Shown here: one piece after another, positions 15,432 to 56,862 of the stretch
Layout of the letters: every line of letters starts with the position of its first letter
Position numbering within the stretch: the first letter of the stretch is position 1
Assembly (NCBI GenBank): GCA_018303655.1
Contig: JAGVXT010000021.1
Coordinates: 18,811-82,810, forward strand
Reading direction: 5' to 3'
Origin: Candidatus Woesearchaeota archaeon
GTDB taxonomy: Archaea; Nanobdellota; Nanobdellia; Woesearchaeales; GW2011-AR4
DNA: 64,000 nucleotides
Notes under the pieces: generated by a model
Told to the model about the DNA's origin: nothing
Databases searched by the model: none
What the model saw: the letters and a program-made list of their open reading frames with translations, nothing else
Made by a program: the position numbers and the translations under genes

Positions 15432-16982
15432 ATGATTGGCATAATCCTGGAAAACACAAATAAAAAATCGCTTTACGTATTCAAAACTCTCTTTGGCATA
15501 ATGGGATTTGAATATTATTTTATCAATGAAAAAGATGCGGAAAGCTATCCTGTGGTTGTTTATTACGGAAATAATCCTAATTTAAAATCCAAATACGCGA
15601 TAGAAATACCTGTTTCAGGGGATTTCATAGGCAAAATCGGGAAGAGCCCGTACACAAGATCAAATGGAAAGATAATATTTAACATAGACATTGTATCGCT
15701 ATCTTTCTTTCTTTTGGCCAGGCAGGAGGAGATGGACAACAAGGCAAGGGATATGCACAAAAGATTTGACCATTCTGAGACAATTCTGAAGGATTTCATA
15801 AAAGAGCCCATAATTAATAATTACATCAGGCATCTGGAAGAGCTTATCATTGAAGAGTTTAGAAAGCAGAATCTGCCATTGCTTAAAAAGGCATACTGGC
15901 CTTGTGCAGAAGACTTTGCCGCTTCACTGACGCATGATGTTGATGTGCTTTACAAGTACAATTTCATCGGCTCTTTGGTTCAGGCTAAAAAAATACTGGT
16001 TTTATTTCTAAAGCTGAAATTAAAGCTTGCGTTTTCCTCTGCTTACACAATGATTCAATGCATAATCACAAACAAAAAGCCCTACTGGCAGATGCTGAAC
16101 GTCGCTGATTTCGAGAAAAAATACGGATTTGTTTCATCATTTTACCTTTGCGCGAAAAGAAGGCACAAGCTTGACCCATACTATGATGTCAGGAGCGATG
16201 AAATAAAAAATGCCATAAGAAAGCTGCACAGCATGGGCTTTGAGATTGGAGTTCATGGAAGCTACACCTCTTACCTGGATTTTGAAAAATTAAGAGAGGA
16301 AAAGGAGATACTGGAAAAGGCTTTGAACGGAAAAGTTACCGGCAACAGGCAGCATTTTGGCAGGTTTGAAGCGCCTTACACATGGAGGCTGCACAATAAG
16401 CTTTTTGCTTATGACTCAACTGTCGGGTACATCAACATGAGCGGATTCAGGGCTTCAATCTGCTTTCCATTTATTGCTTATGACGCTCTTGAAGACAAGG
16501 AGCTGGATTTGATAGAAGTACCTTTCACCACATCAGACGGAACTCTTTTTGGCCCCATGAATCTGAGCAAGGAAGACGCATGGAAGGACACGGAAAAGCT
16601 TATCGATAAGATAAGGGAAAATAACGGGCTGATTGTCCTGGACTGGCACCAGCGTGTGATATATGAGGAAGATTACCCCGGATACTGGTGGGTTTACGCA
16701 AAGGCTGTTGAGCGCATAAAAGAATTAAAAGCATACGTCGCGCCTTTAGGCGAGATAACTGAATGGTGGGCAGCAAGGGGGAATTTGATTGTTAAATCCG
16801 GCAAAAAAAACAAAAGCTACGAGATAAGCTCAAAAAAAGAATTGAAAAATGCATCTTTCCTTCTTTACAATGCAGATAAATTCAAAATTGAGGGAAACAG
16901 CAAATACGATGCAATTAAGAAAGATGGCTGTTTTTTGATAAAGTTTGAAATGCTTAAGGATGCTGTGATAAAAATTGATTAG
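15432..16982 (+). CDS. hypothetical protein, possibly polysaccharide deacetylase-like beta/alpha-barrel enzyme
   Basis: LTHDVDVLY and C-terminal ...LDWHQRV...EITEWW are reminiscent of CE4/deacetylase-like folds. The assignment is weak. Confidence 0.3.
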   Translation: MIGIILENTNKKSLYVFKTLFGIMGFEYYFINEKDAESYPVVVYYGNNPNLKSKYAIEIPVSGDFIGKIGKSPYTRSNGKIIFNIDIVSLSFFLLARQEEMDNKARDMHKRFDHSETILKDFIKEPIINNYIRHLEELIIEEFRKQNLPLLKKAYWPCAEDFAASLTHDVDVLYKYNFIGSLVQAKKILVLFLKLKLKLAFSSAYTMIQCIITNKKPYWQMLNVADFEKKYGFVSSFYLCAKRRHKLDPYYDVRSDEIKNAIRKLHSMGFEIGVHGSYTSYLDFEKLREEKEILEKALNGKVTGNRQHFGRFEAPYTWRLHNKLFAYDSTVGYINMSGFRASICFPFIAYDALEDKELDLIEVPFTTSDGTLFGPMNLSKEDAWKDTEKLIDKIRENNGLIVLDWHQRVIYEEDYPGYWWVYAKAVERIKELKAYVAPLGEITEWWAARGNLIVKSGKKNKSYEISSKKELKNASFLLYNADKFKIEGNSKYDAIKKDGCFLIKFEMLKDAVIKID

Positions 16983-19007: not shown

Positions 19008-19850
19008 TTATAAAAACTTTACTGGCATAATAAAGACTAGTTGAAGATAATCTCTAAAACATAAAATTGTATTGTGGGCGATAGCCCTACAATACATCTC
19101 GGCTCTTTGAGACTTCATATTCAAAGAGCTGACGCTAGTTCCAAATTTTCTTTTGATGGAAAAAATCACAGATTCAGCCATGCTTCTCCTATTGTAAACT
19201 CTTTTCTTAAAATTTTTCAAAACTTTATGCCTTACAAAACCTCTGAAGGCATTCTTTCTTACTTTGACGACTGGGGCAATTCCATTGTCCCACAAAAATT
19301 CATAGAATTTCTCTGAATCGTATGCAGAATCTGCAACTAATTTGCAAGGAAATCTTGCGAACCTTTTAACCAAATATTCTGCATCTTTGATGTCATGCGA
19401 TTTTCTTGCTCTTGTCCTAAGAGCAAGAATTCTCTTGCTTCTTGTGTCAACAGCAAGAGAAATTTTTATGGGAATGTCGACGGGATATGGCTTGTCAATC
19501 CTTTTATAATAGTAAGGGCTTGGCAAAGTCCTTGACATGCCTGTTGAGTCAATCGCAGCAATCTTAACTTTCATGCTTGCTGTGGCAGCAAGCAAAGTTT
19601 GCCAAATTTCAATTGGCATTCTGTAAGCAAACTTTGCTAAGGCAGAATAAGTTGGAACTTTAAGTCCCAAATCGTTTAGCAGATTGCTTGTTCTCCTGAA
19701 ACTCAACTTACATTCTTGCTTTACAAGTAAAGCAATAACATGCTGCCAAAGCTCGTAAGTCTTTGGCCCGAATTTATTTAAATGTCTGGGCAGTTTTGCT
19801 TTCCTTAGCAAACGCTTAACTTTATTTTCTAGTCTTTTTTCCTTTTTCAT
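19008..19850 (-). CDS. IS4/IS5-family DDE transposase
   Basis: N-terminal HTH. DDE region ...KLVADSAYDSE.... Canonical Y(2)R(3)E(6)K signature VYNRRSMAESVIFSIKRK. Likely start is the ATG at 19848-19850; the ORF track extends to a GTG at 19862. Confidence 0.85.
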   Translation of the reverse strand: MKKEKRLENKVKRLLRKAKLPRHLNKFGPKTYELWQHVIALLVKQECKLSFRRTSNLLNDLGLKVPTYSALAKFAYRMPIEIWQTLLAATASMKVKIAAIDSTGMSRTLPSPYYYKRIDKPYPVDIPIKISLAVDTRSKRILALRTRARKSHDIKDAEYLVKRFARFPCKLVADSAYDSEKFYEFLWDNGIAPVVKVRKNAFRGFVRHKVLKNFKKRVYNRRSMAESVIFSIKRKFGTSVSSLNMKSQRAEMYCRAIAHNTILCFRDYLQLVFIMPVKFL

Positions 19851-19870
19851 GGTGGGGTGCACTCCCCACC
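19851..19870 (-). promoter_or_regulatory. perfect 7-bp stem hairpin GGTGGGG-TGCACT-CCCCACC immediately 5' of the transposase ATG (likely translational occlusion of the start/RBS)
   Basis: Seen directly in the sequence. A second hairpin AGCAGCC-TAAC-GGCTGCT follows at about 19872-19893. Confidence 0.5.
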
Positions 19871-19984: not shown

Positions 19985-21466
19985 CTAAGACTGGGCTAAA
20001 GAAGCTTTTCCTTCATCGTTCTCTGAAGTAGAGGCTCTTATTTTCATATAATAATGCTCTTCAGCATCCTTAAATCTCAAATATCCCCCTATTCTTCTTA
20101 AACATGACTTCACAGTTTTTTTAAAACCCCATAACCGATAATAGTCTACTATAAGTCTTGCAAGAATCCACGGTCTTGCATAACAATAGGCTCTCAGTTC
20201 CTTTTCAATATCATTTCTTATCTGAATTAATTCTTCATCTGTAAAATCAGTCATATTAATTTTCAAATCAGAAGCATCTCCGAGATTTTCAACGTATTTA
20301 TCCTCATCATCAATTTTATTTTTCCATTCTTCCCACAATGGCGTGCCAGGAAATGCTGTTGCAAAGAAGAAATTTGCTGGTAAGCCTATTTCCTTACAAA
20401 AATCAACAGTTTCCCTTATTGTTTTCATATTTTCCCCGGGGTATCCAAGCATGAAAGTCCCTCCTGATTTCAAGCCCAGCCCCTTTATTTTCTTGTATAT
20501 TTCTTTGGCTTTCTGCAGATCTATCCCCTTCTTCATATTATCAAGTATTGTTTGGCTTCCACTTTCTAATCCATAAGATATAGAAAAGCAGCCTGCTTTT
20601 TTCATTTTTAAGATAAGGTCCTCATACAAATATTCCAATCTGGTGAGACAATGCCACTTGAGATTTAACTTTTGTTCTATCATTTTGTCGCACATCTCTC
20701 CAACAATCTTCCTGTTAAGCAGAAATAAATCATCAAAAAACATTATTCCATTTATGTTGTATTTTTCTTTTAGATGCTTCATCTCAGCTACAATGTTATC
20801 AGCGCTTCTAAATCTCGCTTTCTCGCCCATAAATGAATGATAGCAGAACTTACAAAGAAAAGGACATCCTCGTGTTATTATCATTGGCATCATTCTTCGA
20901 TTCTGTTCAACTTCTTGTGTGTTTTTAATATAAGTTTCAAAAGGGAACAAGTCCCATTCAGGGAAAGGAATATTGTCAATATTCTCTATTATTTTTCTTG
21001 GAGAAGTATAGATTATGTTTCCATTTTCCTTATATGCAAGTCCATCGACTTTTTTTAGAGCGATGCTTTTTTCCAGAGCATCGGCAAGTTCACAAACTGT
21101 TACTTCTGCTTCTCCAATCATTAATATGTCAGAAGAAGTATATTTAAAAAGAAGATGTGGAATCTCATTAGATATATTACCACCAATAACTATAGGCTTG
21201 TCCGGGTGATATTTTTTCAAAACCGGAGTAAGAAACTTTAAATATTTGTATAATGTTATAACTCCTCCAGTACATACCATATCATAATTTAATTCTCTTA
21301 TCTTATTTTCTACTTCACTTCTATCATAGCGGAAACCATTTATGTCCAGAACCTCAACCTTATGATTGGCTTTTCTCAGAACAGCAATTAGGTATGCCAT
21401 TCCAAGAGGTAATGTAAATGGTGGAAATCTTTCACTTATTGGGCAGTTGACTAAAAGTACTTTCAT
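19985..21466 (-). CDS. cobalamin-binding (class B) radical SAM protein
   Basis: N-terminal B12-binding-like domain (MKVLLVNCPIS...LPLGMAYLIAVL). Cluster motif RGCPFLCKFCYHS. Confidence 0.8.
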   Translation of the reverse strand: MKVLLVNCPISERFPPFTLPLGMAYLIAVLRKANHKVEVLDINGFRYDRSEVENKIRELNYDMVCTGGVITLYKYLKFLTPVLKKYHPDKPIVIGGNISNEIPHLLFKYTSSDILMIGEAEVTVCELADALEKSIALKKVDGLAYKENGNIIYTSPRKIIENIDNIPFPEWDLFPFETYIKNTQEVEQNRRMMPMIITRGCPFLCKFCYHSFMGEKARFRSADNIVAEMKHLKEKYNINGIMFFDDLFLLNRKIVGEMCDKMIEQKLNLKWHCLTRLEYLYEDLILKMKKAGCFSISYGLESGSQTILDNMKKGIDLQKAKEIYKKIKGLGLKSGGTFMLGYPGENMKTIRETVDFCKEIGLPANFFFATAFPGTPLWEEWKNKIDDEDKYVENLGDASDLKINMTDFTDEELIQIRNDIEKELRAYCYARPWILARLIVDYYRLWGFKKTVKSCLRRIGGYLRFKDAEEHYYMKIRASTSENDEGKASLAQS

Positions 21467-21674
21467 TCTTAAACATCTAAACCATCAAGCTTTTATCCAT
21501 AAATATAAATATTTTTGATAATATTATTTATGGAATTACTTGACATTATTGACACCAATATTTAAATTTTCCTATAGCAAAGTGTTGAGGTCACAAAAAA
21601 TTACAGTAAATCTTATAAATCAACTAAAATTCTCATGGATAAATCTATTAGATTGGGAAGGGAGGCTTATTTAT

Positions 21675-23390
21675 ATGCGGCAAACAAAAGCTACTGAAGA
21701 GGAAAAAGAGATATACATATTGGGTATAAATTATGTTGGTGCTGATGCTTCTGCATCTTTGCTTAAAAATGCCAGAATAATTGCATCGGCTATGGAAGAA
21801 AGATTCACAAGGATAAAAAAAGATAGAAGTTTCCCTACTAATGCGATAAACTTCTGTCTAAAATATGCAAATTTAACAATTGAAGACATAGACCTAGTTA
21901 CTTACTATATGATTCCTGAAGATTTGTTTAATAATCTTGTTATACATCACCTTGGAAAGTACTATCCCAAGTCAATTCCCCTATTTACATCTACTTTAAA
22001 TAGGGCCTTAAAAGTTAACAATGTTGAGAAAGAAATAAGAGAAAGATTAAACTATCATGGAAAGATATATTTCTGCGATCATCATTTGGCTCATATAGCT
22101 TCAAGTTTCTTCTTATCTGAGTTCGATGATGCAGCTGCAATATCTATGGATGGTTTGGGAGAAATTGCCAGCACTTTTATAGCTGATGTTGAAAATAATG
22201 AAATTAAAGTATTAAAGAGAGTAGACTTTCCTCATTCACTGGGAATGTTGTATAATGCAGTTACACACTATTTAGGATTTGATGCCGTCCAAGATCCTGG
22301 TAAAGTAATGGGTTTATCTTCCTATGGGGACCCTAAAAAGTATATAGATGAGTTTAGGAAAATTGTTATTCTTAAAGAAGATGGAACATATGAATTGGAC
22401 TTGAGTTATTTTGAATTTCCATTTAGAAGGGATGTCTGGATTTCTGATAAATTCATCAAGGTGTTTGGACCCAGACGAGAGCCAGATAGTCACCTTGAAA
22501 AAAGATATGAAGATGTAGCAGCTGCATTACAAGTCAGACTTGAGGATGTTTACTTCCACATGGTAGAGTATGCCAAGAAAGCCACTAATAAAGACTATCT
22601 TTGCCTTTCTGGAGGTGTAGCTTTAAACAGTGTAGCTAATGGGAGGATTCTAAAGAAAGAGATTTTTAAGGATATATATATTCCTCCGGCATGTGGAGAT
22701 GATGGTTTATCGATAGGGGCACCATTGTATTATAATTTTTGCGTCCTAAAAAATAAAAAAAGATATCCTTTGGAAACACCTTATTTAGGACCCGAATATA
22801 GCGATGAAGAGATTGTTAAAATAATTAAAAAATTTAATTTGAAATACTACAAGTCAGATAATGTATGCAAAGAAACTGCAAAGCTAATAGCAGACAACAA
22901 AATTATAGGATGGTTTCAGGGAAGAATGGAGATAGGACCAAGAGCTTTGGGAAACAGAAGCATTCTTGCAAATCCTGCTTTAAATAATGTCAAAGAATTA
23001 CTGAATTCGAGGGTGAAATTTCGTGAATCGTTCAGACCTTTTGCTCCGAGCGTTTTAGTTGAAGATGTAAAAGACTGGTTTGAATATGACCATCCTGTAC
23101 CATATATGCTGTTTGTGTTCAAGATAAATGAAGATAAACAAAAGTTAGTGCCGGGAATTACCCATATTGATGGTACTGGAAGACTGCAAACAGTAAGTAA
23201 GACAACCAATGAAAAATATCATAAGTTGATAAGCGAATTTAAGAGATTAACTGGCATACCAATGGTTGTTAACACGTCATTTAACATCAAAGGAGAACCA
23301 ATAATTGAAAGTCCTGTTAATGCTATCAAATGCTTCTTAGGAAACGGTTTGGATTATCTTGTTATGAGTGATTTTGTAATAAAGAAATAA
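21675..23390 (+). CDS. carbamoyltransferase, NodU/CmcH/TobZ family
   Basis: ILGINYVGADASASLLKN...HHLAHIASSFF...MGLSSYGDP are NodU-family motifs. GGAGG-like RBS 8 nt upstream of the ATG at 21675. The ORF track's upstream extension from 21540 is probably not translated. Confidence 0.75.
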   Translation: MRQTKATEEEKEIYILGINYVGADASASLLKNARIIASAMEERFTRIKKDRSFPTNAINFCLKYANLTIEDIDLVTYYMIPEDLFNNLVIHHLGKYYPKSIPLFTSTLNRALKVNNVEKEIRERLNYHGKIYFCDHHLAHIASSFFLSEFDDAAAISMDGLGEIASTFIADVENNEIKVLKRVDFPHSLGMLYNAVTHYLGFDAVQDPGKVMGLSSYGDPKKYIDEFRKIVILKEDGTYELDLSYFEFPFRRDVWISDKFIKVFGPRREPDSHLEKRYEDVAAALQVRLEDVYFHMVEYAKKATNKDYLCLSGGVALNSVANGRILKKEIFKDIYIPPACGDDGLSIGAPLYYNFCVLKNKKRYPLETPYLGPEYSDEEIVKIIKKFNLKYYKSDNVCKETAKLIADNKIIGWFQGRMEIGPRALGNRSILANPALNNVKELLNSRVKFRESFRPFAPSVLVEDVKDWFEYDHPVPYMLFVFKINEDKQKLVPGITHIDGTGRLQTVSKTTNEKYHKLISEFKRLTGIPMVVNTSFNIKGEPIIESPVNAIKCFLGNGLDYLVMSDFVIKK

Positions 23391-23418: not shown

Positions 23419-23925
23419 TTAATTAGTCTTTTCTTCTTTCAATATTATGTCTGCAACTTCTCTTATCGCCCCTTCGCCGCCTTTCTTTTTTGTGACAATA
23501 TTTGCGGCTTTTTTAACTTCAGGATATGAATCGCTGACAGCTATTCCGATGCCGGCATATTTTATGCATTCAATATCAGTTATGTCATTCCCGATAAAAC
23601 AGACTTCCTCTTTGCTTATGCTTCTTTTTGCAAGCTCTTTTTTCAAAATTGGTAATTTGTTATTTATTCCTTGAATGCATGGAATTTTTAGCTTGCCGCA
23701 TCGCGTTTTAACGACTTTATTCTTTTCCTTTGATATCACAATAACTTCAATGCCATTCTTCTTAAGCAATTCTATTCCCAGGCCGTCTGACCTGTTGCAT
23801 ATGACCGATTCCTTGCCGTTTTCATCAACAGTGACCTTATTATCAGTCATAACGCCATCAAAATCGCATGCCAAAAGTTTTATTTTAGCAGGATTTGCAG
23901 CTTTTTTGATTTTGTTTTCTTTCAT
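23419..23925 (-). CDS. HAD-IIIA phosphatase, KdsC family (ulosonate/nonulosonate-phosphate phosphatase)
   Basis: LLACDFDGVMTDNKV... matches the KdsC motif I (DxDGVLTD). Length 168 aa. Confidence 0.75.
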   Translation of the reverse strand: MKENKIKKAANPAKIKLLACDFDGVMTDNKVTVDENGKESVICNRSDGLGIELLKKNGIEVIVISKEKNKVVKTRCGKLKIPCIQGINNKLPILKKELAKRSISKEEVCFIGNDITDIECIKYAGIGIAVSDSYPEVKKAANIVTKKKGGEGAIREVADIILKEEKTN

Positions 23926-23931
23926 AACAGC

Positions 23932-24786
23932 TTACCAACAGGTTTTCCCCCCATCAATGACTAAATTTGTTCCTGTCATATAAGAAGATGCGTCTGAAAC
24001 AAGGAATACAATCGCTGCCTTGTATTCATCCTTATCAGCCATTCTTCCCAAAGGGATAAGATTCGCTAATCTTTTGACAAACCCTTCACTCTGATCATTA
24101 TAGACTCCTCCTGGTGATATGGAATTAACCCTTATGCCTTTTTTTGCCCAGTAAGTTGCGAGATACCTTGTCATTCCGATTAGCCCGGATTTGACAACAG
24201 AGTAGGATATTGGCTTGGTAAATTGCTCCTCTTCCTTTTGCCCAGGCTCTCGGTAAATCCTTTGGTCAGGTGCTATAAGCGCCAAATCAGAAGCTATATT
24301 CAAAATAACGCCTTTTCCCTGTTTCGTCATTTGCGCTCCTATAATTTTGCTGCATAAAAATGCGCCCGTTAATCCAACATCCATGTCCTTGTTCCACGTA
24401 CGCAGCGGAAAGTTTTCCAAGCGTGACTTTAATCCGGCAGATCTGCCTTCAACTTTAGGATTGTTTGCTGCATTATTAATCAGAATGTCAACTTTTTTGA
24501 ATTGCTTCATAACCTTTGACAATAATTTTTTTACTGCTTCTTCATTGGTAATATCACAATAATATGCTTTTGCCTTGACTCCAAAAACATTTGCAATTTC
24601 TTGAGCGCATTCCTGCGCTCTTTTTTCATCAATGTCAATCAATATGGGTATGCCTCCCATTTCTGCTATGGCCTCCGCATGTTTTGCTCCAAGCAAACCT
24701 GCTCCGCCAGTGATAACGGCTACCCTGCCATTTAATGCGAAAGCTTCTTTTACAGAATCTTTATGCTTAACCATTTTATTTTTCAT
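23932..24786 (-). CDS. SDR family NAD(P)-dependent oxidoreductase
   Basis: VAVITGGAGLLGAKHAEAIAEMGG (TGxxxGxG). Y...K catalytic pair (YSVVKSG). Confidence 0.7.
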   Translation of the reverse strand: MKNKMVKHKDSVKEAFALNGRVAVITGGAGLLGAKHAEAIAEMGGIPILIDIDEKRAQECAQEIANVFGVKAKAYYCDITNEEAVKKLLSKVMKQFKKVDILINNAANNPKVEGRSAGLKSRLENFPLRTWNKDMDVGLTGAFLCSKIIGAQMTKQGKGVILNIASDLALIAPDQRIYREPGQKEEEQFTKPISYSVVKSGLIGMTRYLATYWAKKGIRVNSISPGGVYNDQSEGFVKRLANLIPLGRMADKDEYKAAIVFLVSDASSYMTGTNLVIDGGKTCW

Positions 24787-25547
24787 AATGATCGTGTTTG
24801 TCCTCCGTCCACCACTAAACAGGCTCCAGTAATAAATGATGCTTTTTCAGATGATAAGAAAAGCACCGCATCTGCAACTTCTTCCGGTTTTCCAAAGCGC
24901 TGCATAGGAACTTCTGCGGCAATGTATTTCTTAAAGAACTCCTTACGTTTTGCTAAGTTCTTTTCCCAACTTCCGCCAGGGAAAAGGATATTTCCCGGAG
25001 CAACGGCATTCACGCGAATATTCTTATCTGCCACTTCTCTGGAAAGCTGTTTCATGGCATGCAGCAAGCCAGCTTTTGCAGCAGTGTAGGGAAGATGCCC
25101 TCCAACTGTCTCTATGCCTACTATGGAAGAAATAAAAACAATAGAACCTCCTTGTTTTGTGAGATATGGGATGGATTTGCTGGCAAGCATCATGCTTCCA
25201 ATAAGGTTTGTGGCAAGCATTGACTGCCAATCTTCAAATTTTAAATCAAATCCGTTCTTTCCTGTTCCGCTTCCAATATTGGCAATTACAATATTTATTT
25301 CACCAAAATGGGAAACTGCCTTTTTGAGGGCGCTGTCAATGGTTTTAGGATTAGCCATATCGCCGTGGATCTTCAGGACATCGTTCCCTTCGCCAAGTAT
25401 ATGGCGTGCTTTCTCGAGACTTTCTGAATCTCGCCCTGTGATGGCTACCTTTGCTCCTTCTTTTGCAAAAGCCTGTGCAATAGCAAGGCCTATACCTTTA
25501 CTGGAGCCTGCTATAAACACAACCTTATTCTTGAGTTTTAAGTCCAT
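24783..25547 (-). CDS. SDR family oxidoreductase (3-oxoacyl-ACP reductase-like)
   Basis: KVVFIAGSSKGIGLAIAQAF. YTAAKAG catalytic motif. 254 aa. Confidence 0.8.
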   Translation of the reverse strand: MDLKLKNKVVFIAGSSKGIGLAIAQAFAKEGAKVAITGRDSESLEKARHILGEGNDVLKIHGDMANPKTIDSALKKAVSHFGEINIVIANIGSGTGKNGFDLKFEDWQSMLATNLIGSMMLASKSIPYLTKQGGSIVFISSIVGIETVGGHLPYTAAKAGLLHAMKQLSREVADKNIRVNAVAPGNILFPGGSWEKNLAKRKEFFKKYIAAEVPMQRFGKPEEVADAVLFLSSEKASFITGACLVVDGGQTRSL

Positions 25548-25554
25548 TTTGTCT

Positions 25555-26397
25555 TTAGTTATAGTTGCAATATTTTAAAACAAATTTTTTATTATTTTTC
25601 GCATATGCCATAGTATCAATTGAATCATCACGTGCAGCTTGCAGTATAAAAGGCCTTGTGTATTTTGCAGCTTTAATCAGTTTAAAGCATGTGGTAAAAT
25701 CCACAGACCCTTGGCCCAAAGGAACGGTCTTTCCATTAAAAATTCTGTCCTTGATATGCACGCTTCCGATCCATTCTTTAAGTATTACCAATTCCTTAGA
25801 GGGGTTGTGCCCTAATGCTGCAGCATTTCCTGTGTCATAATTAAATTTTACCAGAGGATGTTTTATTTTCTCAAAAATGTGTTTCATTGCATATGGCTCC
25901 AAATCTGTTTCTAGATGAATCTCAATTTCAGCTTTTTCCGTATCATTCAAAACTGCATTTAATACATTTAAAAGGCTTGCCTGCTGCTTTTTTGTTTTTA
26001 GCGATGAAGCATCAACAAATGGCAGTACAATATATTTAATCTTCAACATTTTTGCACGTCCAATGAGCCAGCGCAGATGCTCAACAGCATCCTTGTTAAT
26101 ATCCCCATTTTCCTGGATTAATAATATTTTCATATAGTAATCTGCGCAGATAGAGATGACTTGAACTCCTGTTTCTTTTATTTTCTTTTGTATATGTGAT
26201 ATTCCCTCATCACTTTTTACCGGGTTTTTATCCTCGTTTGGCACTTCATAAATCCATTCTATGCAGTCAATTCCGGCTTCTCTTGCAAGGTCAAACTCCA
26301 GTTTCCATGTGTCAAAAGGAAACCACTGAATCATCTTTCCTCTTGGCGGTGAAAGCCGACCTTGCATAATTCCGATTGGATTTGGGAGTTTACTCAT
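25555..26397 (-). CDS. sugar phosphate isomerase/epimerase (xylose-isomerase-like TIM barrel)
   Basis: Length and pattern of a TIM barrel with conserved His/Glu/Asp (IEIHLETD, HIKD). Confidence 0.5.
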   Translation of the reverse strand: MSKLPNPIGIMQGRLSPPRGKMIQWFPFDTWKLEFDLAREAGIDCIEWIYEVPNEDKNPVKSDEGISHIQKKIKETGVQVISICADYYMKILLIQENGDINKDAVEHLRWLIGRAKMLKIKYIVLPFVDASSLKTKKQQASLLNVLNAVLNDTEKAEIEIHLETDLEPYAMKHIFEKIKHPLVKFNYDTGNAAALGHNPSKELVILKEWIGSVHIKDRIFNGKTVPLGQGSVDFTTCFKLIKAAKYTRPFILQAARDDSIDTMAYAKNNKKFVLKYCNYN

Positions 26398-26824
26398 TCA
26401 GCACCTCGACCAATTCTATCCATGCTCCGTTAGGGTCTCTGCAAAAAACAACTTTAGCATAGCCATCTGGAGAAGCCTCTGGAGAGGAATTGAATTTTAT
26501 CCCTTCTCCAAGCAATCGCTTATATTCTTTTTCCACATTATCCACTGTAAATGCTATATGGGAGCATCCTAATCCGGTAATATAGGTATTTTCTGGTTTT
26601 TTTGGATGTGATTTAAAATATAATAATTCAATTAAATTTCCATCTGGCGCTTTCATTTTTATTGTTCTTACTGAGGCATTTTTAAGGGACAGTACAGAAT
26701 CAATATAATTTCCGGATTCTAATTTATCCTTGACTATTTCAAATCCAAGCAAGTCTCTGTAAAAATGGAGTGATTTATCCAAATCACTCACAACTATGCC
26801 TGTATGCCTTATTGCCTTGATCAT
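26390..26824 (-). CDS. VOC/glyoxalase-bleomycin-resistance family protein
   Basis: IRHTGIVVSDLDKSLHFYRDLLGF is a typical VOC N-terminal module. 144 aa. Confidence 0.65.
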   Translation of the reverse strand: MIKAIRHTGIVVSDLDKSLHFYRDLLGFEIVKDKLESGNYIDSVLSLKNASVRTIKMKAPDGNLIELLYFKSHPKKPENTYITGLGCSHIAFTVDNVEKEYKRLLGEGIKFNSSPEASPDGYAKVVFCRDPNGAWIELVEVLNE

Positions 26825-28164
26825 TGCTTTTCAGCCTCTTCTATAGCTTCTTCAAAAACTTCCAATCCTTCATCTAAAGCATTGTCTGGTATTGTCAGCG
26901 GAGGTCCTATCTTTATAGACTCCCTTCCTGTATGAACCAACAAAAGCCCTTTTTCCATGGCTTTGTAACACACCTTTGTGGCAAAGTCTGCATCGGGCTT
27001 TTTTGTCTTTGGATTGATAAATAATACGCCAGCCAATAATCCTTTGCCTAAAACATAAGATATTCTATTAGGATATTTTTCTTTAATTTCATTTAATCTG
27101 GAATGCAAAATTTTTCCCTTGCGCTCGGATTCTTTGATTAAATTTTTGTCAAATAGTTCTTCGAGAACAGCCAACCCTGCTGCACAACAGACTGGATTAG
27201 CGGAATGCGTGCTGCTCATAGAGCCAACATCTGGTATATCCATTACATCTTTTCTTCCCAATACCGCCGATAGTGGAAGGCTTGAGCTAATCCCTTTCCC
27301 GCAGCATATAATATCCGGCTCGATATCATAATGCTGGTATGCAAATAGCTTGCCGGTTCTTCCAAATCCTCCCTGAATATCATCAACACAAATCAAAATA
27401 TTATGCTCTTTGGCAAATTTGGAAAGTTCTTGAATATAATCGCTTGGATAAAAAACAGCTCCCCATCCTATATAGGCTTCAAGCATGAACCCAACTATGT
27501 CTTTATTGATATTAACTTTCTCTTCTAATTTTTTGATGTCATGCCTAAATTTTTCTTTGCCTGATATTTTGCCATTAAGCACCCATGGATATGGAAATTC
27601 CAGCCTGTGTACATTTGGGTCGTCAAAGCCTATCCATGCTCTTGACTTTTGGTTTCCACCCAGCATTTGCGCCCCCATGGTTCTTCCATGCATGCTGCCC
27701 TCAAAGGAGATTATTCCGGGTTTTCTCTTTCCAACTTTATGGGAGTACATGCGCATTAATTTTATTGCGCATTCCGTAGCTTCAGTGCCAGATGATAATA
27801 AAAAGGCTTTTTCAAATTGTTTTGGCACAGATTTTATAAGTTTTTTGATATACCTTGCTCTGATTTCTGTTATGAATGTATAGCTATGTAAAAGGTCATT
27901 GTCAATAATGCTGCTGATTGCCTTTTTTACTTTGGGATTTGAATGCCCGACATTAGCCACGAAAATAGTTGAGGTGAAGTCTATCCAGCAATTCCCCTCT
28001 TTATCCCAGACTTGGAAATTCTTTGCCTTGTCCCATACAACAGGCAATTGCCCATGCATGGACCTGACTTCATATTTTTTTAAGTTATTGATTAGGTTCA
28101 TAGCATTGGAGTTGGGGATTTTGGTGACTATTCTCCTGAATTTTGTTTTAATCATTTTAATCAT
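26821..28164 (-). CDS. class III PLP-dependent aminotransferase
   Basis: 447 aa. LSSGTEATECAIKLMR and DDIQGGFGRTGKLFA (catalytic Lys region) are class III motifs. Confidence 0.75.
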   Translation of the reverse strand: MIKMIKTKFRRIVTKIPNSNAMNLINNLKKYEVRSMHGQLPVVWDKAKNFQVWDKEGNCWIDFTSTIFVANVGHSNPKVKKAISSIIDNDLLHSYTFITEIRARYIKKLIKSVPKQFEKAFLLSSGTEATECAIKLMRMYSHKVGKRKPGIISFEGSMHGRTMGAQMLGGNQKSRAWIGFDDPNVHRLEFPYPWVLNGKISGKEKFRHDIKKLEEKVNINKDIVGFMLEAYIGWGAVFYPSDYIQELSKFAKEHNILICVDDIQGGFGRTGKLFAYQHYDIEPDIICCGKGISSSLPLSAVLGRKDVMDIPDVGSMSSTHSANPVCCAAGLAVLEELFDKNLIKESERKGKILHSRLNEIKEKYPNRISYVLGKGLLAGVLFINPKTKKPDADFATKVCYKAMEKGLLLVHTGRESIKIGPPLTIPDNALDEGLEVFEEAIEEAEKQ

Positions 28165-28192
28165 AATGACCTTGTATTTTTGTAATCTGATT

Positions 28193-28906
28193 TTAGGATT
28201 TTGTATAAAGGATGCCCTTTTTTTCTATTATGAATTGTAAATACTCAAAATCTTCCGGCTGGTCAACTTCCGCAGAGAAGGGGGTTATAAAGGCCAATAT
28301 TTTTGGCCCATGAAGGTTGTTGTGCTTCATTATAAAGTCTGGTACGAGCACATCAACATAGCCATTAGGATGGTAAGCTGGCGGAAAGCTTTGTCTTGGC
28401 AGGTTATAATATTCCGGCCTGGTGTCATCAGGAAACATGCCCACTAGAAATCCATTATTGATTTCGAATGCCTTGCGCGGAGATTCAGCCATTTCATGAA
28501 CTGATCGCAAAGATGATGCCTTATCATTGTTTTTTAAGGCCTTGATCGCCTTGTCAATTAATGATGGCTCCCTTAAAGGTGTTGTAGGCCTGAGGTGCAC
28601 CAGCAACTCCGGCAGACTGCCTTCCTTTTTTTTATGCCATTCTAAAAAATGGGATATAAATTCTATATCTGTAGACGTATCAATAGCCAACTCTCTGGGC
28701 CTCAAAAATGGGACCTCTGCCCCGTATATTTTGGCTATGTCTGCAATTTCCTGGGAATCCGTTGAGACTATTACCCTGTCAATATTTTTTGATCGCTTCG
28801 CTGCAATAATCGAATAAGCTATTAATGGGTAGCCTCCAAGAGGTTTGATATTCTTCTTTGGAATCTTTTTTGACCCGAACCTAGCAGGGATTATTGCAGT
28901 TATCAT
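28193..28906 (-). CDS. neuA: acylneuraminate (nonulosonate/ulosonate) cytidylyltransferase
   Basis: MITAIIPARFGSKKIPKKNIKPLGGYPLIAYSI is the CMP-NeuAc/CMP-Kdo synthetase N-terminal signature. Confidence 0.8.
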   Translation of the reverse strand: MITAIIPARFGSKKIPKKNIKPLGGYPLIAYSIIAAKRSKNIDRVIVSTDSQEIADIAKIYGAEVPFLRPRELAIDTSTDIEFISHFLEWHKKKEGSLPELLVHLRPTTPLREPSLIDKAIKALKNNDKASSLRSVHEMAESPRKAFEINNGFLVGMFPDDTRPEYYNLPRQSFPPAYHPNGYVDVLVPDFIMKHNNLHGPKILAFITPFSAEVDQPEDFEYLQFIIEKKGILYTKS

Positions 28907-28908
28907 TG

Positions 28909-29943
28909 TTAATCTAAATTTTCTACCTTCCTTAATTTTTTAAGGATTGGGATCTCTGACTCGTAAATTCTTTTTTTCCCATCCCCCAGATATAAGGGCA
29001 TCAATCTTGCCACCTCGCAAATGATCTCTATGCCTTTTCTTTCCAGGCTTGCAGACTGGTCGCTTCCGAACATGGATCTGTCCAGAGTTATATGGCGCTC
29101 TACCATGCAAGCTCCCAATGCTATGGCAATCAAAACCGGGTACACCCCTGGCTCATGGCCGCTGTAGCCAACAGGGCAATTGAAGAATTTCCTGAAGGTT
29201 TTTATGACATTTAAGTTATGCTCATTTGGCGGAGTGGGGTATGTTGAAGTGCAGTGCATGATGATTAGATTATTTTCCCCTAAAATATTTACAGCCTTTT
29301 GTATCTGCTCCATTGTGCTCATCCCAGTAGACAATATAATTGGCTTGTTGGTTGATTTTACTTTCATTAAAAGTTTTTTATTAGTCAGCATTGCTGATGC
29401 AATCTTATGGCATGACACATCAAATTTTTCCAGAAAATCAATGCTTTCTTCATCCCAGGCAGATGCAAACCAGATGATATTTTTTTTCCTGCAGTACTCA
29501 TCAATTTCCTTGTATTCATCATAGCCAAATTCTAATGCGCGCTTCAAGTCACCATTGGTTTTGCCAAAAGGGCTTTCTCTGGACATTTCCAGTTCTTCTT
29601 TTGGGTAAACTTTCTCAATAGTCCTCTTTTGAAATTTTACCGCATCACATCCGGATTCAGCTGCAATATCAATCAATTTTTTGCAAATTTCCATGTTTCC
29701 ATTATGGTTTATTCCAATTTCAGCTGTGATAAAAACTGGTTGGTCATGACCCACAAGCTTGCTTCCAATCATAACAGGCTTAGGGTTTCTTTCTTCGAGA
29801 TACATCTTCTCATAAATTTTCCAAGCCTGGGAAATTGCCTGAGTTTTGTTGGGGATAATCCCCTGGCTGTTGTTCACTAATTCAGTAATTTTTCTATTTA
29901 ACTCTTCTGGAATTGTTATTGACTCATATCCTTCTTTTGGCAT
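28909..29943 (-). CDS. neuB: NeuB-family PEP-condensing nonulosonate/ulosonate synthase with N-terminal RHH-like extension and no C-terminal SAF domain
   Basis: ITAEIGINHNGNMEICKKLIDIAAESGCDAVKFQK...ILSTGMS...HCTSTYPTP...VGYSGHE is the NeuB TIM barrel. The about 60 N-terminal residues SITIPEELNRKITELVNNSQGIIPNKTQAISQAWKIY fit a beta-alpha-alpha ribbon-helix-helix pattern. The protein ends right after the barrel. Confidence 0.8.
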   Translation of the reverse strand: MPKEGYESITIPEELNRKITELVNNSQGIIPNKTQAISQAWKIYEKMYLEERNPKPVMIGSKLVGHDQPVFITAEIGINHNGNMEICKKLIDIAAESGCDAVKFQKRTIEKVYPKEELEMSRESPFGKTNGDLKRALEFGYDEYKEIDEYCRKKNIIWFASAWDEESIDFLEKFDVSCHKIASAMLTNKKLLMKVKSTNKPIILSTGMSTMEQIQKAVNILGENNLIIMHCTSTYPTPPNEHNLNVIKTFRKFFNCPVGYSGHEPGVYPVLIAIALGACMVERHITLDRSMFGSDQSASLERKGIEIICEVARLMPLYLGDGKKRIYESEIPILKKLRKVENLD

Positions 29944-29965
29944 TCATATCACCCAAACCTTGTGG

Positions 29966-30025
29966 GTACGGTACGTATATTTAAATATATCTGTTTTTTA
30001 GAGAAATTCTGTAAAAGTACCGTAC
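29966..30025. promoter_or_regulatory. inverted repeat GTACGGTACG ...(41 bp)... (A)GTACCGTAC flanking a palindromic TATA-like box (TATATTTAAATATA) in the neuB / methyltransferase divergent promoter
   Basis: Seen directly. The arms are GC-rich in an AT-rich intergenic region. The left arm lies about 23 bp upstream of the neuB start codon. Confidence 0.45.
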
Positions 30026-30119
30026 TTTAAATAACAATTTGATGTTAAAAGGAAGGGGCGGTTTTCTCAAATACTAAACAAAATCGCTTTCAATAAAATT
30101 TATATATTAAAGGGGACTG

Positions 30120-31341: not shown

Positions 31342-32832
31342 TTAGGTAGCTCTAAGCCTCCTTAATAATTCTTTTACTTCAGAAACAGTCACCAATCCCC
31401 ATATGAATAAAGATATAACATAAATTGCTCCTGAAACTAATAATATAAGCGGTATTTTAACAAATAAATTCATGGTCATTTGTAGATTGAGGTAGTTCAC
31501 TATTAAAAGGAAGACTATAGAAATGGCAAGATTCTTTATCCATCTAATATACGGTATCTGTATAAGATTTTTCTTTTTAAGAATATAAAGTCCTAAAAGC
31601 GCCATTGATAGGTAAGATATTGCAGTTGCTACTGCAGCTCCCGTAAATCCGAATTTTGGTATTAAGAGAAAATTGAAAAATATGTTTAATATTGCACTTA
31701 TTCCTATTATTTTCGTATTAATACCTGGTTCTCCTATACCAGAAAAAATTCCGCCATTTATTCCCTGAAATGTATGGAACATGATGCCTATTGCCAATAT
31801 TTTCAGAGCCATGCTTCCAATCACATAATTGCTGCCATAAAATAATTCCAGAATTATACTGGAAAATATGATTAATAATGATAAAACTGGCAAGATTAAA
31901 ATCAAAGAAAATCTGTATAATAACCCTATTCCCTTTTTTAGCTCCGTTTTCATTCCTTTATTCCATAATTCAGAGGTAATAGGTAAAAGAACATATCCAA
32001 TAGCACTGGTTATATACCATGTAAGCATTGCAGTGGGTAATACCGCACTGTAGATGCCAACTTCTTCCAACCCTCTAAAATAAGTGATCATTAACTGGTC
32101 AGAATATCCTATCACTATTCCTACTGAAGAAATTAAAATTACTTGTATTCCGTACTTTCTCAGCCTCTTGAATAATGGCTTATCCCAAAAAAATTTATTT
32201 TTAGTAAACGCATCAAAATTTTTATATAAAAACGGAAAGTAAACAAAAAGCAGGATTAAAGAGGTAATAATGTATGCTATAACGGGGCTTAATATGCCAT
32301 AATCCATTTTAAAAAATATTAAGGATATGGCAAGTATCAATATCATTCTTATGATATCTACGCTTGAGAATAGTCCCATCTTTTGGAATCCTTGAAATGA
32401 TGATTTTATTAAAAGTACAAAACTATCAACGAACAAACTTATTGCCATTAATATCAGAACTATCGGTCCAAAGTCGTGTTTTAAAAAATTGACGCCTAAA
32501 TATTTTGCAAAAATCAAAATAATAATTAGAAATATAATATTATTTACTAATAAAACGATGCTAGCGTATATTATTGAATTTTTTATATTCTGGAATTCTG
32601 ACTTTGCTGTAAATTTAGGGATAAAAAAAGCCAAAGCGGTATCTAACCCCAAACCTTTAAAAAAACTAAAGAATCCCAAAAACGCTATTGTTGCGTAGAA
32701 AAGCCCGAATTCTTCAACAGTCAAATTTCTTGCAAAAAAAATCCTAACAAAGTATCCAATAAAAGCCGCGACTATAGAAATCACAAAAACTATTACTACA
32801 TTTTTCAAAGCCTTTTTTGTGTAATTAGTCAT
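31342..32832 (-). CDS. Wzx-like oligosaccharide flippase (MOP/polysaccharide biosynthesis protein family)
   Basis: 496 aa with about 12-14 predicted TM helices. Sits in a glycan-locus context. Confidence 0.7.
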   Translation of the reverse strand: MTNYTKKALKNVVIVFVISIVAAFIGYFVRIFFARNLTVEEFGLFYATIAFLGFFSFFKGLGLDTALAFFIPKFTAKSEFQNIKNSIIYASIVLLVNNIIFLIIILIFAKYLGVNFLKHDFGPIVLILMAISLFVDSFVLLIKSSFQGFQKMGLFSSVDIIRMILILAISLIFFKMDYGILSPVIAYIITSLILLFVYFPFLYKNFDAFTKNKFFWDKPLFKRLRKYGIQVILISSVGIVIGYSDQLMITYFRGLEEVGIYSAVLPTAMLTWYITSAIGYVLLPITSELWNKGMKTELKKGIGLLYRFSLILILPVLSLLIIFSSIILELFYGSNYVIGSMALKILAIGIMFHTFQGINGGIFSGIGEPGINTKIIGISAILNIFFNFLLIPKFGFTGAAVATAISYLSMALLGLYILKKKNLIQIPYIRWIKNLAISIVFLLIVNYLNLQMTMNLFVKIPLILLVSGAIYVISLFIWGLVTVSEVKELLRRLRAT

Positions 32833-32861: not shown

Positions 32862-34718
32862 TTAAGCAACCTCAAATATTATCATTCCATTATTGCTGAA
32901 AACGGATCTGAACTTGCTTGATTTTATAAGCCCCTGAATCTTGTTATTTGTTTCATTTGCTCCAAACTTTCTAGCGGTTTGGCCGTCAATCACAATGTAT
33001 TCATACTGGCCTTTCTTAAGCCATTCATAATTCTGCTCAGCTGTCAGGTTAAATCCATTGCGCTGATAGGTTCTGGTGTCATCGCACCAATGGCATATAA
33101 ACTTATCAAGGCCAAGTATCAGCGCATTGTTCGAAAATGTGAATGTTTTTTTTCCAGGCGCTATGTTTTCCTTAAACCAAATGTAGCCCTGGATTTCCTC
33201 GTTTGATGTCCAAAATCCTCCCGGAGGCCATAAGGCTGTGTTTACTGTATACTTAGGAATAAAAGATGTTGTGATGATGCCATAAAACAAAATTCCAAGC
33301 ATGAGCAGCGAAGCTGCAGTTATTGCCGCATTTGATTTTGTAATGCTTTTAACAAGGCTTTTGGCAAAATTTTCTATCAAGCTTATAGCCTCTCCGGACA
33401 ATAATGAGACAGGGATTGCAAGCAGCATCCATGCCCTGAACGGGGATAATTTTATTGGAAACCTGGCAGCATTGACTGCATAAAAAGCAAAAGCAAGCCA
33501 CAGTAATGTGACAAGCCTGCTGTAATTTTCCTTCCTGAACATTTCCTTGTATTTTGAAACAAGAAAAATAATGCCTATTGCTGTTAATAGGGAAAGAATA
33601 ACTCCTATCCCTATTGGATTATTTATCATGTTAACTCCCTTGGCAAAAATAAAATCAGATAAATTGTAAATTCTGTCTCCGGTGCCTGCTATGCCTACAA
33701 CACTGGGATTTGTGCCTAAAAAAGTTCTTACAAGACCATTAAAGCCATAAGCCTTTATCATCGGCATCCACCATAGAATGAAAGACAGCAATAAGCCGGA
33801 AAATCCCGCAAGAAATTCGTACATAAAAAATTTCCTTTCAACTAAAATTCTGCCAATGAAGTATATTAGGAGAAATAAGCCAAAATAAGTGCTGTGGGTT
33901 GGGGATGAAGTCAATGTTGGCGCAATAACTATTGCAGATGCCATCCACCATGCTTTGTCATCTTTTATTTTTTCAATAGCATAAAATGAAACAAAGAACA
34001 ATGGCATTGTCAAGGCGATTGCCCATATAAAATGGCTTAAGAAAGATGGTATGGCAAATAGTGAGAATGCTGCAAATAATGCTTTCTTTGGGCTGTTTGT
34101 GAATGCTTTCGCAAAAAAATAGAAGAATATGATGCTTAATGACACAATTAATGCATTGAAAAACTTGAGAGTCCAGTAAACTGAATTATTTGACTGGTGC
34201 AGAATTCCCATGAGCATATCATATGCAGGGGGATAAGGGTCTATGTAATGGAAAGGGTTTCCAACATTTCGTGCAAAAACGGTCTTTTCAATGGATACAT
34301 ACTTGACGCCCATGGCATGGCTCCATGAATCATCATCCTCTAAATAGGGATATGCAAAAGCCCCTTTAGCATTCATATAAAGAGAAGCAGAAAATAAGAT
34401 AAGCGCTATTAGTGGAAATATGCTTATTGAAAAGTCTTTTGAGTTTTTAAAAATAATTCTGCCTTTCTTGAAATCTTTAAATATCCTGATAAAAATCAGC
34501 AAAATGCTTGCCAACAGGAATATCCTCCAGTCCAGGGGAATTCCGATAAGGTTGAGCAGCAAGCCAAAGGATATCATAGCTCCAAGCCCAATCCCAATCC
34601 TCATTATGTTTCTCTCTAAAAAGTCCTCTGACTCCCTGGCTAATAAGCCAGCACCTAGTCCAAATCCCCATGTGTACAAAAAAAATAAGATTATGCTTAA
34701 TGCAAACATCAATAACAC
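32862..34718 (-). CDS. GT-C-like integral membrane protein (multi-TM N-terminal domain + C-terminal soluble domain); candidate membrane glycosyltransferase/polymerase
   Basis: 618 aa. About 12 TM helices. Acidic loop motif YLEDDDSWSHA after TM1. No WWDYG motif seen, so not a confident AglB/STT3. Confidence 0.4.
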   Translation of the reverse strand: MLLMFALSIILFFLYTWGFGLGAGLLARESEDFLERNIMRIGIGLGAMISFGLLLNLIGIPLDWRIFLLASILLIFIRIFKDFKKGRIIFKNSKDFSISIFPLIALILFSASLYMNAKGAFAYPYLEDDDSWSHAMGVKYVSIEKTVFARNVGNPFHYIDPYPPAYDMLMGILHQSNNSVYWTLKFFNALIVSLSIIFFYFFAKAFTNSPKKALFAAFSLFAIPSFLSHFIWAIALTMPLFFVSFYAIEKIKDDKAWWMASAIVIAPTLTSSPTHSTYFGLFLLIYFIGRILVERKFFMYEFLAGFSGLLLSFILWWMPMIKAYGFNGLVRTFLGTNPSVVGIAGTGDRIYNLSDFIFAKGVNMINNPIGIGVILSLLTAIGIIFLVSKYKEMFRKENYSRLVTLLWLAFAFYAVNAARFPIKLSPFRAWMLLAIPVSLLSGEAISLIENFAKSLVKSITKSNAAITAASLLMLGILFYGIITTSFIPKYTVNTALWPPGGFWTSNEEIQGYIWFKENIAPGKKTFTFSNNALILGLDKFICHWCDDTRTYQRNGFNLTAEQNYEWLKKGQYEYIVIDGQTARKFGANETNNKIQGLIKSSKFRSVFSNNGMIIFEVA

Positions 34719-39498: not shown

Positions 39499-39527
39499 CG
39501 AATAAAGCAAATTTTTTAAACTGAATT

Positions 39528-40016: not shown

Positions 40017-40017
40017 A

Positions 40018-46653: not shown

Positions 46654-46775
46654 ATAACTCGCTCTATGGTCATTCTTTAATAGAGTTTCGTATTTAAAGT
46701 TTTCTAAAACCTGCTGCAGCTGGTGCCAGTGATAAAACCAAATCTTTAAATAAAAAGCAGTCGCTTCTTTGGGCA

Positions 46776-56822: not shown

Positions 56823-56862
56823 GGTGGACAGCTTTTCCAGTTTCCCACACATAAGTGAAGTA

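Follow-up and report, generated by a model that had tools for sequence, protein, structure and literature searches.

To our knowledge, few routes to sialic-acid-like sugars are known, and all of them aminate nucleotide-hexoses before condensation with phosphoenolpyruvate (PEP). These sugars shape how hosts, phages and partner cells see microbes. An operon of eight genes is described here from a 64,000-nucleotide stretch (hereafter the window) of contig JAGVXT010000021.1, positions 18,811 to 82,810, from a Woesearchaeota (DPANN) genome of aquifer-metagenome origin. The balance of evidence leans towards an operon whose product is a cytidine monophosphate (CMP)-activated, sialic-acid-like sugar, a 3-deoxy-2-ulosonic acid that bears an amine and is destined for the surface glycan of the surrounding gene island, a phospho-sugar being made first and tailored later. 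The genes belong to a conserved cassette found in both prokaryotic domains, which is held together by Rosetta-stone fusions and module swaps.

The operon shares NeuB and NeuA homologues with the pathways to legionaminic (Leg) and pseudaminic (Pse) acids (LegB/C/H/G/I/F, PseB/C/H/G/I/F), and its end product would be of the same class, a CMP-activated amino-ulosonic acid. In those pathways, in contrast, a 4,6-dehydratase and a DegT enzyme aminate nucleoside diphosphate-hexoses before condensation, with no phosphorylated intermediate, and these enzymes are absent from the operon. A second likeness is to the Kdn (deaminated neuraminic acid) pathway of B. thetaiotaomicron (BT1714 synthase, BT1713 phosphatase, CMP-Kdn synthetase) and to vertebrate NANS/NANP/CMAS: a CTP_transf_3 cytidylyltransferase is shared, as are a HAD phosphatase of the YrbI/C0 type and a NeuB-family synthase, for which a sugar-phosphate substrate would follow by analogy. 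Unlike these routes, the cassette has five further conserved enzymes. The window phosphatase scores below the Kdn-9-phosphate phosphatase equivalog (NF058599; 101.6 bits, cut-off 180), and the SAF domain, retained in vertebrate NANS, is missing from the window NeuB. The Kdo8N (8-amino-3,8-dideoxy-octulosonate) pathway of Shewanella reportedly consists of KdsA, KdsC, the alcohol dehydrogenase KdnB, the aminotransferase KdnA and KdsB. Its order of events (ulosonate phosphate, dephosphorylation, hydroxyl oxidation, transamination, CMP activation) is the logic of the reading favoured here. The enzymes differ: NeuB stands for KdsA (DAHP-synthase fold), a short-chain dehydrogenase/reductase (SDR) for the iron alcohol dehydrogenase and a class III for a DegT-like aminotransferase, and the cassette adds an epimerase-like TIM barrel, a VOC protein and a second SDR.

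The operon (29943-23419) consists of eight tightly packed open reading frames (ORFs) on the minus strand. Families were assigned with Pfam and NCBIfam models (Pfam E-values 2.6e-10 to 4e-96). The features are given in the order of transcription.

29944-30119, minus strand: putative promoter region, from sequence reading alone.
28909-29943, minus strand: NeuB-family synthase, SAF-less, 344 aa (PF03102, 260 bits).
28193-28906, minus strand: NeuA-type CMP-ulosonate synthetase (CTP_transf_3), 237 aa (PF02348, 96 bits).
26821-28164, minus strand: class III pyridoxal phosphate (PLP) aminotransferase (Aminotran_3), 447 aa (PF00202, 322.6 bits).
26390-26824, minus strand: single-domain VOC protein (Glyoxalase), 144 aa (PF00903, 73 bits).
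25555-26397, minus strand: TIM barrel, xylose-isomerase-like (AP_endonuc_2), 280 aa (PF01261, 95 bits).
24783-25547, minus strand: SDR1, classical SDR, 254 aa (adh_short_C2, 198 bits).
23932-24786, minus strand: SDR2, classical SDR of the polyol/sugar-acid dehydrogenase type (adh_short), 284 aa (best models: PRK09186, gluconate 5-dehydrogenase).
23419-23925, minus strand: YrbI/KdsC-family HAD phosphatase, 168 aa (TIGR01670, 127 bits).

Intergenic distances range from an overlap of 8 bases to a spacer of 28 bases. Some 35-45 nt upstream of the NeuB start is a putative TATA-like A/T-rich stretch, ATATATTTAAATATA. GGTGA immediately precedes the NeuB ATG, and just past the KdsC stop there is a run of T residues. 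The first-pass annotation had described this eight-gene NeuB-NeuA-aminotransferase-VOC-TIM-SDR-SDR-KdsC operon; its coordinates proved exact, and its family assignments are those given by Pfam and NCBIfam. It had also pointed out that canonical enzymes of such pathways are missing from the operon, which holds: among the eight genes, neither set of models finds a DegT aminotransferase, a 4,6-dehydratase, an N-acetyltransferase, a hydrolysing 2-epimerase or PseG, and the DegT and WecB genes of the window sit in other sugar modules. Its proposal of a different, possibly new route is in keeping with the family models and the literature searched, neither of which yields a characterised cluster for Kdn, Kdo8N, N-acetylneuraminate (Neu5Ac), Leg or Pse that corresponds gene for gene; the chemistry itself is predicted from the protein families. 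A search of the literature on ulosonate and nonulosonate pathways brought up no described pathway with this enzyme set.

Four independent aquifer-metagenome contigs carry the same eight-gene string. Orthologues of 8/8 window genes (39-64% identity) are encoded by Methanoplanus limicola, a cultured methanogen, which keeps the window order for seven of them, NeuB to SDR2. In its cassette, the phosphatase is upstream of NeuB, a methyltransferase is inserted between NeuB and NeuA, and a LIC12162-family transferase follows the last SDR. This recurrence is far beyond chance. Carriers of the cassette include DPANN archaea, methanogens, members of the Nitrospirota, many marine contigs and, probably, pathogenic Leptospira, so that it is not a peculiarity of this organism; in this the present results go beyond the first-pass annotation. 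It is defined by an aminotransferase of the subfamily that carries Lys418 (see below) adjoining NeuB, NeuA and VOC, as found in both the window and M. limicola; the TIM barrel, the two SDRs, KdsC, a GmhA-like isomerase, which relatives often add, and a LIC12162-type transferase are optional parts.

With the aminotransferase as query, 80 metagenome loci were retrieved, 17 of which are long (at least 4.5 kb on both sides). NeuB, NeuA and VOC accompany the aminotransferase in all 17, the VOC as its obligate partner. The TIM barrel, SDR1 and SDR2 are also present in 9/17, as are, each in nine loci, a LIC12162-type transferase and a GmhA-like isomerase. One variant (5/17) carries B12-radical-SAM genes and has neither TIM nor SDRs. 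Relatives of NeuA (CTP_transf_3) are fused to the aminotransferase in P0125, P0131 and P0136, and the fusion was confirmed in locus L063. The earlier suggestion that the odd enzymes belong to the pathway is borne out by this co-occurrence and by these fusions.

From the composition of the long loci, the genes fall into three modules. A: NeuB and NeuA, usually with KdsC. B: TIM barrel, SDR1 and SDR2. C: aminotransferase and VOC. Module B is found without C (for example L013, L050) and module C without B (L063, L064). A natural module exchange within one lineage is seen on comparing the window with a close DPANN relative, L058 (10001-14872). NeuB, SDR2 and KdsC are retained there at 70-77% identity; NeuA, aminotransferase, VOC, TIM and SDR1 are replaced by an unrelated CTP_transf_3 cytidylyltransferase, a DegT enzyme and a GNAT acetyltransferase. 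The aminotransferase slot is therefore that of an amination step, and the cytidylyltransferase (NeuA) co-varies and travels with the aminating module.

NeuB scores below the equivalogs for N-acetylneuraminate synthase (TIGR03569; 258.9 bits, cut-off 399.65) and PseI (TIGR03586; 206.7 bits, cut-off 340.25), and the solved NeuB, PseI and SpsE proteins are about equally far from it (E-values 1e-42 to 1e-25). The metal and PEP residues are retained (E75, K103, Q105, K180, S183, H263, E282, H284; alignment with 1xuz and 8h2c) and conserved in at least 118 of 120 clade members. The SAF (antifreeze-like) domain of Neu5Ac, Leg and Pse synthases puts Arg314 into the sugar site. The window NeuB has no match to PF08666 (SAF), and ends at model position 277 of the 329 of TIGR03569, where SAF would start. 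None of its 120 best homologues has an acidic residue at the position of N. meningitidis Glu134, and K106 and R107, directly after the PEP-binding KxQ motif, are invariant among them; these two residues are absent from the solved enzymes and are plausible phosphate ligands, judging from the alignment. An N-terminal extension of about 55 residues (MPKEGYESITIPEELNRKITELVNN...; window 29779-29943) is ribbon-helix-helix-like by eye and has no Pfam match. It is present in 62 of the same 120 homologues, every named carrier being DPANN; methanogen and bacterial orthologues (278-295 aa) are without it. It might be regulatory, or a stand-in for the missing SAF domain in dimerisation.

The phosphatase passes the YrbI/KdsC subfamily model TIGR01670 (cut-off 106.95 bits) and falls below the KdsC equivalog (135 bits, cut-off 208). 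Its HAD nucleophile motif, DFDGV, is at residues 21-25, and its solved relatives are KdsC and BT1713-type enzymes. Neighbourhoods of NeuB were counted in 53 genome loci retrieved with the window protein. A KdsC-like phosphatase adjoins the SAF-less NeuB clade in 49 of them, and in L013 a phosphatase (HAD) is fused to NeuA, a likeness to mammalian CMAS. A phosphorylated condensation product is therefore well supported, as the first-pass annotation had supposed from the phosphatase; the invariant K106/R107 pair points the same way.

The nearest model for NeuA is PseF (142 bits, below the cut-off of 206), and NeuA is 54% identical to its M. limicola orthologue. The aminotransferase family spans 50-83% identity across archaea and bacteria. 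The best 120 homologues listed, at 60-83%, include proteins of Methanoplanus limicola, Methanoregula, Thermodesulfovibrio and Proteobacteria. The catalytic lysine, K290, is invariant in the subfamily. In class III enzymes, a conserved arginine binds the alpha-carboxylate of glutamate or 2-oxoglutarate. This carboxylate-binding residue (LRIxPPL in PDB homologues) is replaced by Lys418 in 110/110 aligned subfamily members and likewise in the window protein; the invariant lysine appears to mark a distinct specificity. The only match in a plasmid search with the aminotransferase was a GabT (33% identity). The 'class III aminotransferase' of Aeromonas flagellin islands was considered and is not this cassette: it lies inside ordinary pse clusters. 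For the VOC protein, the nearest solved structures are uncharacterised small VOCs and glyoxalase I. A precedent may be found in CetB/ValD, VOC enzymes that reportedly epimerise alpha-hydroxy-ketones in cyclitol pathways.

The structure of the TIM barrel was predicted with AlphaFold2 (AF2; pLDDT 91.9). The best PDB folds for this model are UlaE L-xylulose-5-phosphate 3-epimerase (TM 0.82), then YcjR 3-keto-D-glucoside 4-epimerase, then ketose 3-epimerases; the sequence identity to UlaE and YcjR is 15-23%. All these enzymes invert a carbon adjoining a carbonyl. Invariant residues of the family include E163, D188 and H214; the fold was superposed on UlaE as a whole. The modelled protein is a candidate metal-dependent enzyme, keto-sugar epimerase-like. 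Cofactors of the SDRs were predicted by the established rules for residues after strand beta2. SDR1 has the TGxxxGxG and YxxxK motifs and Gly-Arg after beta2, and is predicted to be of the NADP(H) type; it is 39% identical to its M. limicola orthologue. SDR2 has Asp after beta2 and is predicted to be of the NAD type. Mannitol, gluconate-5, sorbitol and xylitol dehydrogenases are the solved enzymes most like it, and it is the commonest tailoring gene beside the SAF-less NeuB clade (33/53 genome loci). E. coli YcjS-YcjR-YcjQ is reportedly a characterised 3-keto-glucoside route. By analogy, SDR1, SDR2 and the TIM barrel fit a similar oxidise/epimerise/reduce triad, a dehydrogenase, a TIM-barrel epimerase and a dehydrogenase working around a transient keto sugar. 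Unlike that route, the dehydrogenases are SDRs, the direction would be biosynthetic rather than catabolic, and the aminotransferase would intercept.

The favoured pathway would run as follows. The SAF-less NeuB would join PEP to an aldose phosphate, in the window organism most simply mannose-6-phosphate, giving Kdn-9-phosphate; in relatives with a GmhA-like isomerase, the substrate would probably be heptose-7-phosphate. The YrbI/KdsC phosphatase would then remove the terminal phosphate. SDR2 (NAD-type) would oxidise a hydroxyl to a ketone, probably in the acyclic tail, the TIM barrel and perhaps VOC would epimerise the neighbouring carbon via an enediolate, the class III aminotransferase would turn a carbonyl into an amine, and SDR1 (NADP-type) would reduce the remaining carbonyl. 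In the last step NeuA would attach CMP. Further decoration by the carbamoyl-, methyl- and radical-SAM enzymes encoded nearby may follow, and a transferase and a flippase would export the sugar. Gene content and its conservation, the co-occurrence of the genes, their fusions and the catalytic motifs are observed; the chemistry of each step, the substrate, the position that is aminated and the place of tailoring relative to CMP activation are inferred. Terminal aldehydes are frequent substrates for amination by class III enzymes. For this reason, and because an acyclic polyol tail suits these families, modification of the tail once the phosphate is gone is favoured by analogy. Transamination at the C2 keto group of the ulosonate was rejected because NeuA requires the anomeric hydroxyl.

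Several points weigh against this pathway. Among solved structures, the aminotransferase is nearest to amino-acid racemases, isoleucine 2-epimerase and gamma-aminobutyrate transaminases; because of these relatives and of the Arg-to-Lys change, its reaction could differ from a simple transamination. Since UlaE acts on a sugar phosphate, the TIM barrel, and the SDRs with it, could reshape a sugar phosphate before condensation. No isomerase to supply the aldose phosphate is found within the 64-kb window. The aminotransferase-VOC pair occurs without TIM or SDRs in L063, L064, L070 and L072; as a guess, the carbonyl in such variants comes from radical SAM/SPASM enzymes. The cassette is biochemically uncharacterised in every member. 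Small radical SAM/SPASM proteins (268-295 aa) adjoin NeuB in L060, L063 and L064, loci without the TIM barrel and without at least one SDR. They might perform a BtrN/anSME-like alcohol oxidation that yields a carbonyl for the aminotransferase.

The alternative that survives best, unlikely as it is, places all tailoring before condensation: the SDRs, TIM barrel, VOC and aminotransferase would build an amino-sugar phosphate, NeuB would condense it with PEP, and KdsC and NeuA would finish, the phosphate staying on until after condensation. It is favoured by UlaE, a ketose-phosphate 3-epimerase, being the nearest relative of the TIM barrel in both fold and sequence, and by a Leptospira NeuB fused to an 'endonuclease-like' domain, maybe of the TIM family, likened by description only (PMC3438082). 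No NeuB-TIM fusion is listed among the 120 best TIM homologues. Against it, the fusions and the L058 swap link the aminotransferase to NeuA, the last enzyme, rather than to NeuB, the relatives of SDR2 use unphosphorylated polyols and sugar acids, and the cassette has neither a kinase nor a sugar-phosphate mutase.

Tailoring after dephosphorylation, the favoured reading, assigns a transamination to the class III enzyme. That this enzyme is instead a PLP-dependent racemase/epimerase or lyase acting on an amino-bearing intermediate is improbable: its best solved homologues, the racemases and isoleucine 2-epimerase, and the invariance of the Arg-to-Lys change speak for such a role, but the cassette has no other nitrogen source, and L058 fills the slot with a DegT sugar aminotransferase and an acetyltransferase, which argues for an amination step. 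Equally little credence is given to a plain Kdn/Kdo-like pathway (NeuB, KdsC, NeuA) in which the other five enzymes serve a separate substituent or sugar and are co-located by the island. NeuB is commonly accompanied by KdsC alone, as in Melainabacteria loci, and glycan islands mix pathways, as the WbpB/E/D-like set elsewhere in the window illustrates. The plain-pathway reading is at odds with the constant company of NeuB, NeuA and VOC at the long aminotransferase loci of both domains, with a gene order conserved from a methanogen to marine contigs and with the NeuA-aminotransferase fusions; moreover, no acyl-activating or acyl-transfer enzyme is present in the cassette. An 'animal-like' pathway (N-acetylmannosamine-6-phosphate (ManNAc-6-P) and PEP to Neu5Ac-9-phosphate, Neu5Ac and CMP-Neu5Ac), which has been proposed for related Leptospira genes (PMC3438082, PMC4758666) and for which a phospho-sugar synthase, a phosphatase and a cytidylyltransferase are present, is very improbable, as the operon lacks a hydrolysing 2-epimerase, a ManNAc kinase and an N-acetyltransferase, the sole 2-epimerase of the window is a non-hydrolysing WecB, five conserved enzymes would be left without a role, and NeuB scores far under the NeuB equivalog cut-off.

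The length of the backbone is a separate matter. GmhA is said to be the sedoheptulose-7-phosphate isomerase of heptose biosynthesis, and LmbR/LmbN reportedly assemble octose-8-phosphate in lincomycin biosynthesis. Relatives of the cassette resemble these systems: a GmhA-like isomerase is fused to the SAF-less NeuB clade in P0083 and P0085 (203 bits for the P0085 domain, gmhA cut-off 209) or lies beside NeuB, and in two methanogen-type loci it is accompanied by transketolase and transaldolase. Unlike in the heptose pathway, no kinase or nucleotidyltransferase goes with the isomerase, and the window is without one. In M. limicola and one related contig, a split transketolase, a transaldolase and the isomerase precede the cassette (L062 3760-6820, L067 1067-4100); the sugar-acid operon thus appears, from its gene content, to carry its own sedoheptulose-7-phosphate supply. 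Together these enzymes would lead from sedoheptulose-7-phosphate to heptose-7-phosphate, and hence to a ten-carbon acid in methanogen-type loci. Since the isomerase is frequent in relatives, the backbone may not be of nine carbons. It is tentatively considered, as a doubtful possibility, that the cassette family, possibly including the window operon, makes a ten-carbon amino-ulosonic acid from GmhA-derived heptose-7-phosphate through the SAF-less NeuB, dephosphorylation, and tail oxidation and amination. Against this, no GmhA-like isomerase is found within the 64 kb, the isomerase is rare among NeuB-anchored genomes (2/53), and the GmhA paralogue could simply make mannose-6-phosphate. For the window operon, mannose-6-phosphate and a Kdn-type nine-carbon backbone are the simpler assumption. 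Mass spectrometry of Magnetospirillum and Methanococcus has shown higher-carbon CMP-ulosonic acids that are unexplained (PMC8157484; bioRxiv 10.64898/2026.04.20.719630). If true, the ten-carbon reading would supply their missing genetics.

The cassette would be a distinct route, with a sugar-phosphate start and, on the favoured reading, tailoring after condensation. It is directly testable, since a cultured carrier, M. limicola, exists. It could account for unassigned CMP-ulosonic acids of mass-spectrometry surveys. It could also explain orphan genes of the nonulosonate (NulO) locus of Leptospira interrogans, where LA_1613 (neuB2 with an extra 'endonuclease/phosphatase-like' domain), LA_1614 (PLP aminotransferase) and LA_1615 (neuA2) are an unexplained trio (PMC3438082, PMC4758666). 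Like the cassette, this trio joins NeuB, an aminotransferase and NeuA; it is probably the same module, likened by its published description. TIGR04331, the LIC12162-family transferase model named after a Leptospira gene, scores 716 bits on the last gene of the M. limicola cassette, a further tie to Leptospira. DPANN archaea live attached to host cells, and the product of the cassette is a candidate surface determinant.

Around the operon, the window is a large surface-glycan island with glycosyltransferases, a Wzx flippase, many methyltransferases, a carbamoyltransferase and three B12-radical-SAM genes. The features that may be connected with the sugar, and a DegT gene of another module, are listed.

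21540-23390, plus strand: carbamoyltransferase (NodU/CmcH type), Carbam_trans_N and _C domains, convergent with the operon.
19985-21466, minus strand: B12-binding radical SAM enzyme, by family matches; candidate sugar C-methyltransferase.
17013-18983, minus strand: candidate CMP-ulosonate glycosyltransferase, by weak matches to surface-carbohydrate proteins, a BFO_1060-family glycosyltransferase and Glyphos_transf.
31342-32832, minus strand: Wzx-type flippase, Polysacc_synt and MurJ matches.
40018-41124: DegT aminotransferase, part of a WbpB/WbpD/WbpE-like trio.

The carbamoyltransferase, homologues of which also lie beside NeuB in relatives (L005, L058, L074), is probably a further tailoring enzyme. 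The flippase is 58% identical to that adjoining NeuB in L058. The candidate glycosyltransferase is a lead only. Possibly, the radical SAM enzyme at 19985-21466 is a C-methyltransferase acting on the sugar. B12-binding radical SAM genes are found at 13443-14963, 19985-21466 and 45163-46776, and are distantly similar to C-/P-methyltransferases and HpnJ. Their recurrence in the island and in the five variant loci suggests, tentatively, that the sugar undergoes C-methylation or radical chemistry. A DDE transposase gene (insertion sequence element; 19008-19862, minus strand), also found on sibling contigs, lies between the candidate transferase and the radical SAM gene at 19985-21466.

The WbpB/WbpD/WbpE-like trio (GFO oxidoreductase, hexapeptide acetyltransferase, DegT) is at 38470-41124, more than 10 kb from the operon. 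The WecB gene (4955-6025), 23 kb from the operon, encodes a non-hydrolysing enzyme (322 bits for TIGR00236, 82 bits for the NeuC model), and shares its group (4955-7760) with a second GFO oxidoreductase gene and one that is dehydrogenase-like. The trio and the WecB group probably serve separate routes to 2,3-diacetamido uronic acids of the kind seen in archaeal N-glycans. A supply of ManNAc to NeuB by the window 2-epimerase was rejected, the enzyme being WecB. A DUF7033 protein (15432-16982, plus strand) has a sub-threshold match to VimE UDP-2,3-diacetamido-glucuronate deacetylase (112 bits, cut-off 440).

Large ORFs without a Pfam match are at 8087-10999 (970 aa), 32862-34718 (618 aa) and 41720-43909 (729 aa); the 618-aa and 729-aa ORFs have no NCBIfam match either. 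The 618-aa ORF adjoins the flippase, and L058 has a family-less 691-aa ORF in a similar position. The only rRNA gene of the window is an isolated 5S rRNA gene (56823-56966, minus strand; Rfam, 55.7 bits); tRNA genes are absent from it. A FemAB-like/GNAT-type protein is encoded, in an archaeon, at 12304-13356 (minus strand); its ORF overlaps the start of a methyltransferase ORF (11676-12404) by about 100 bases, so that one of the two starts is probably mis-called.

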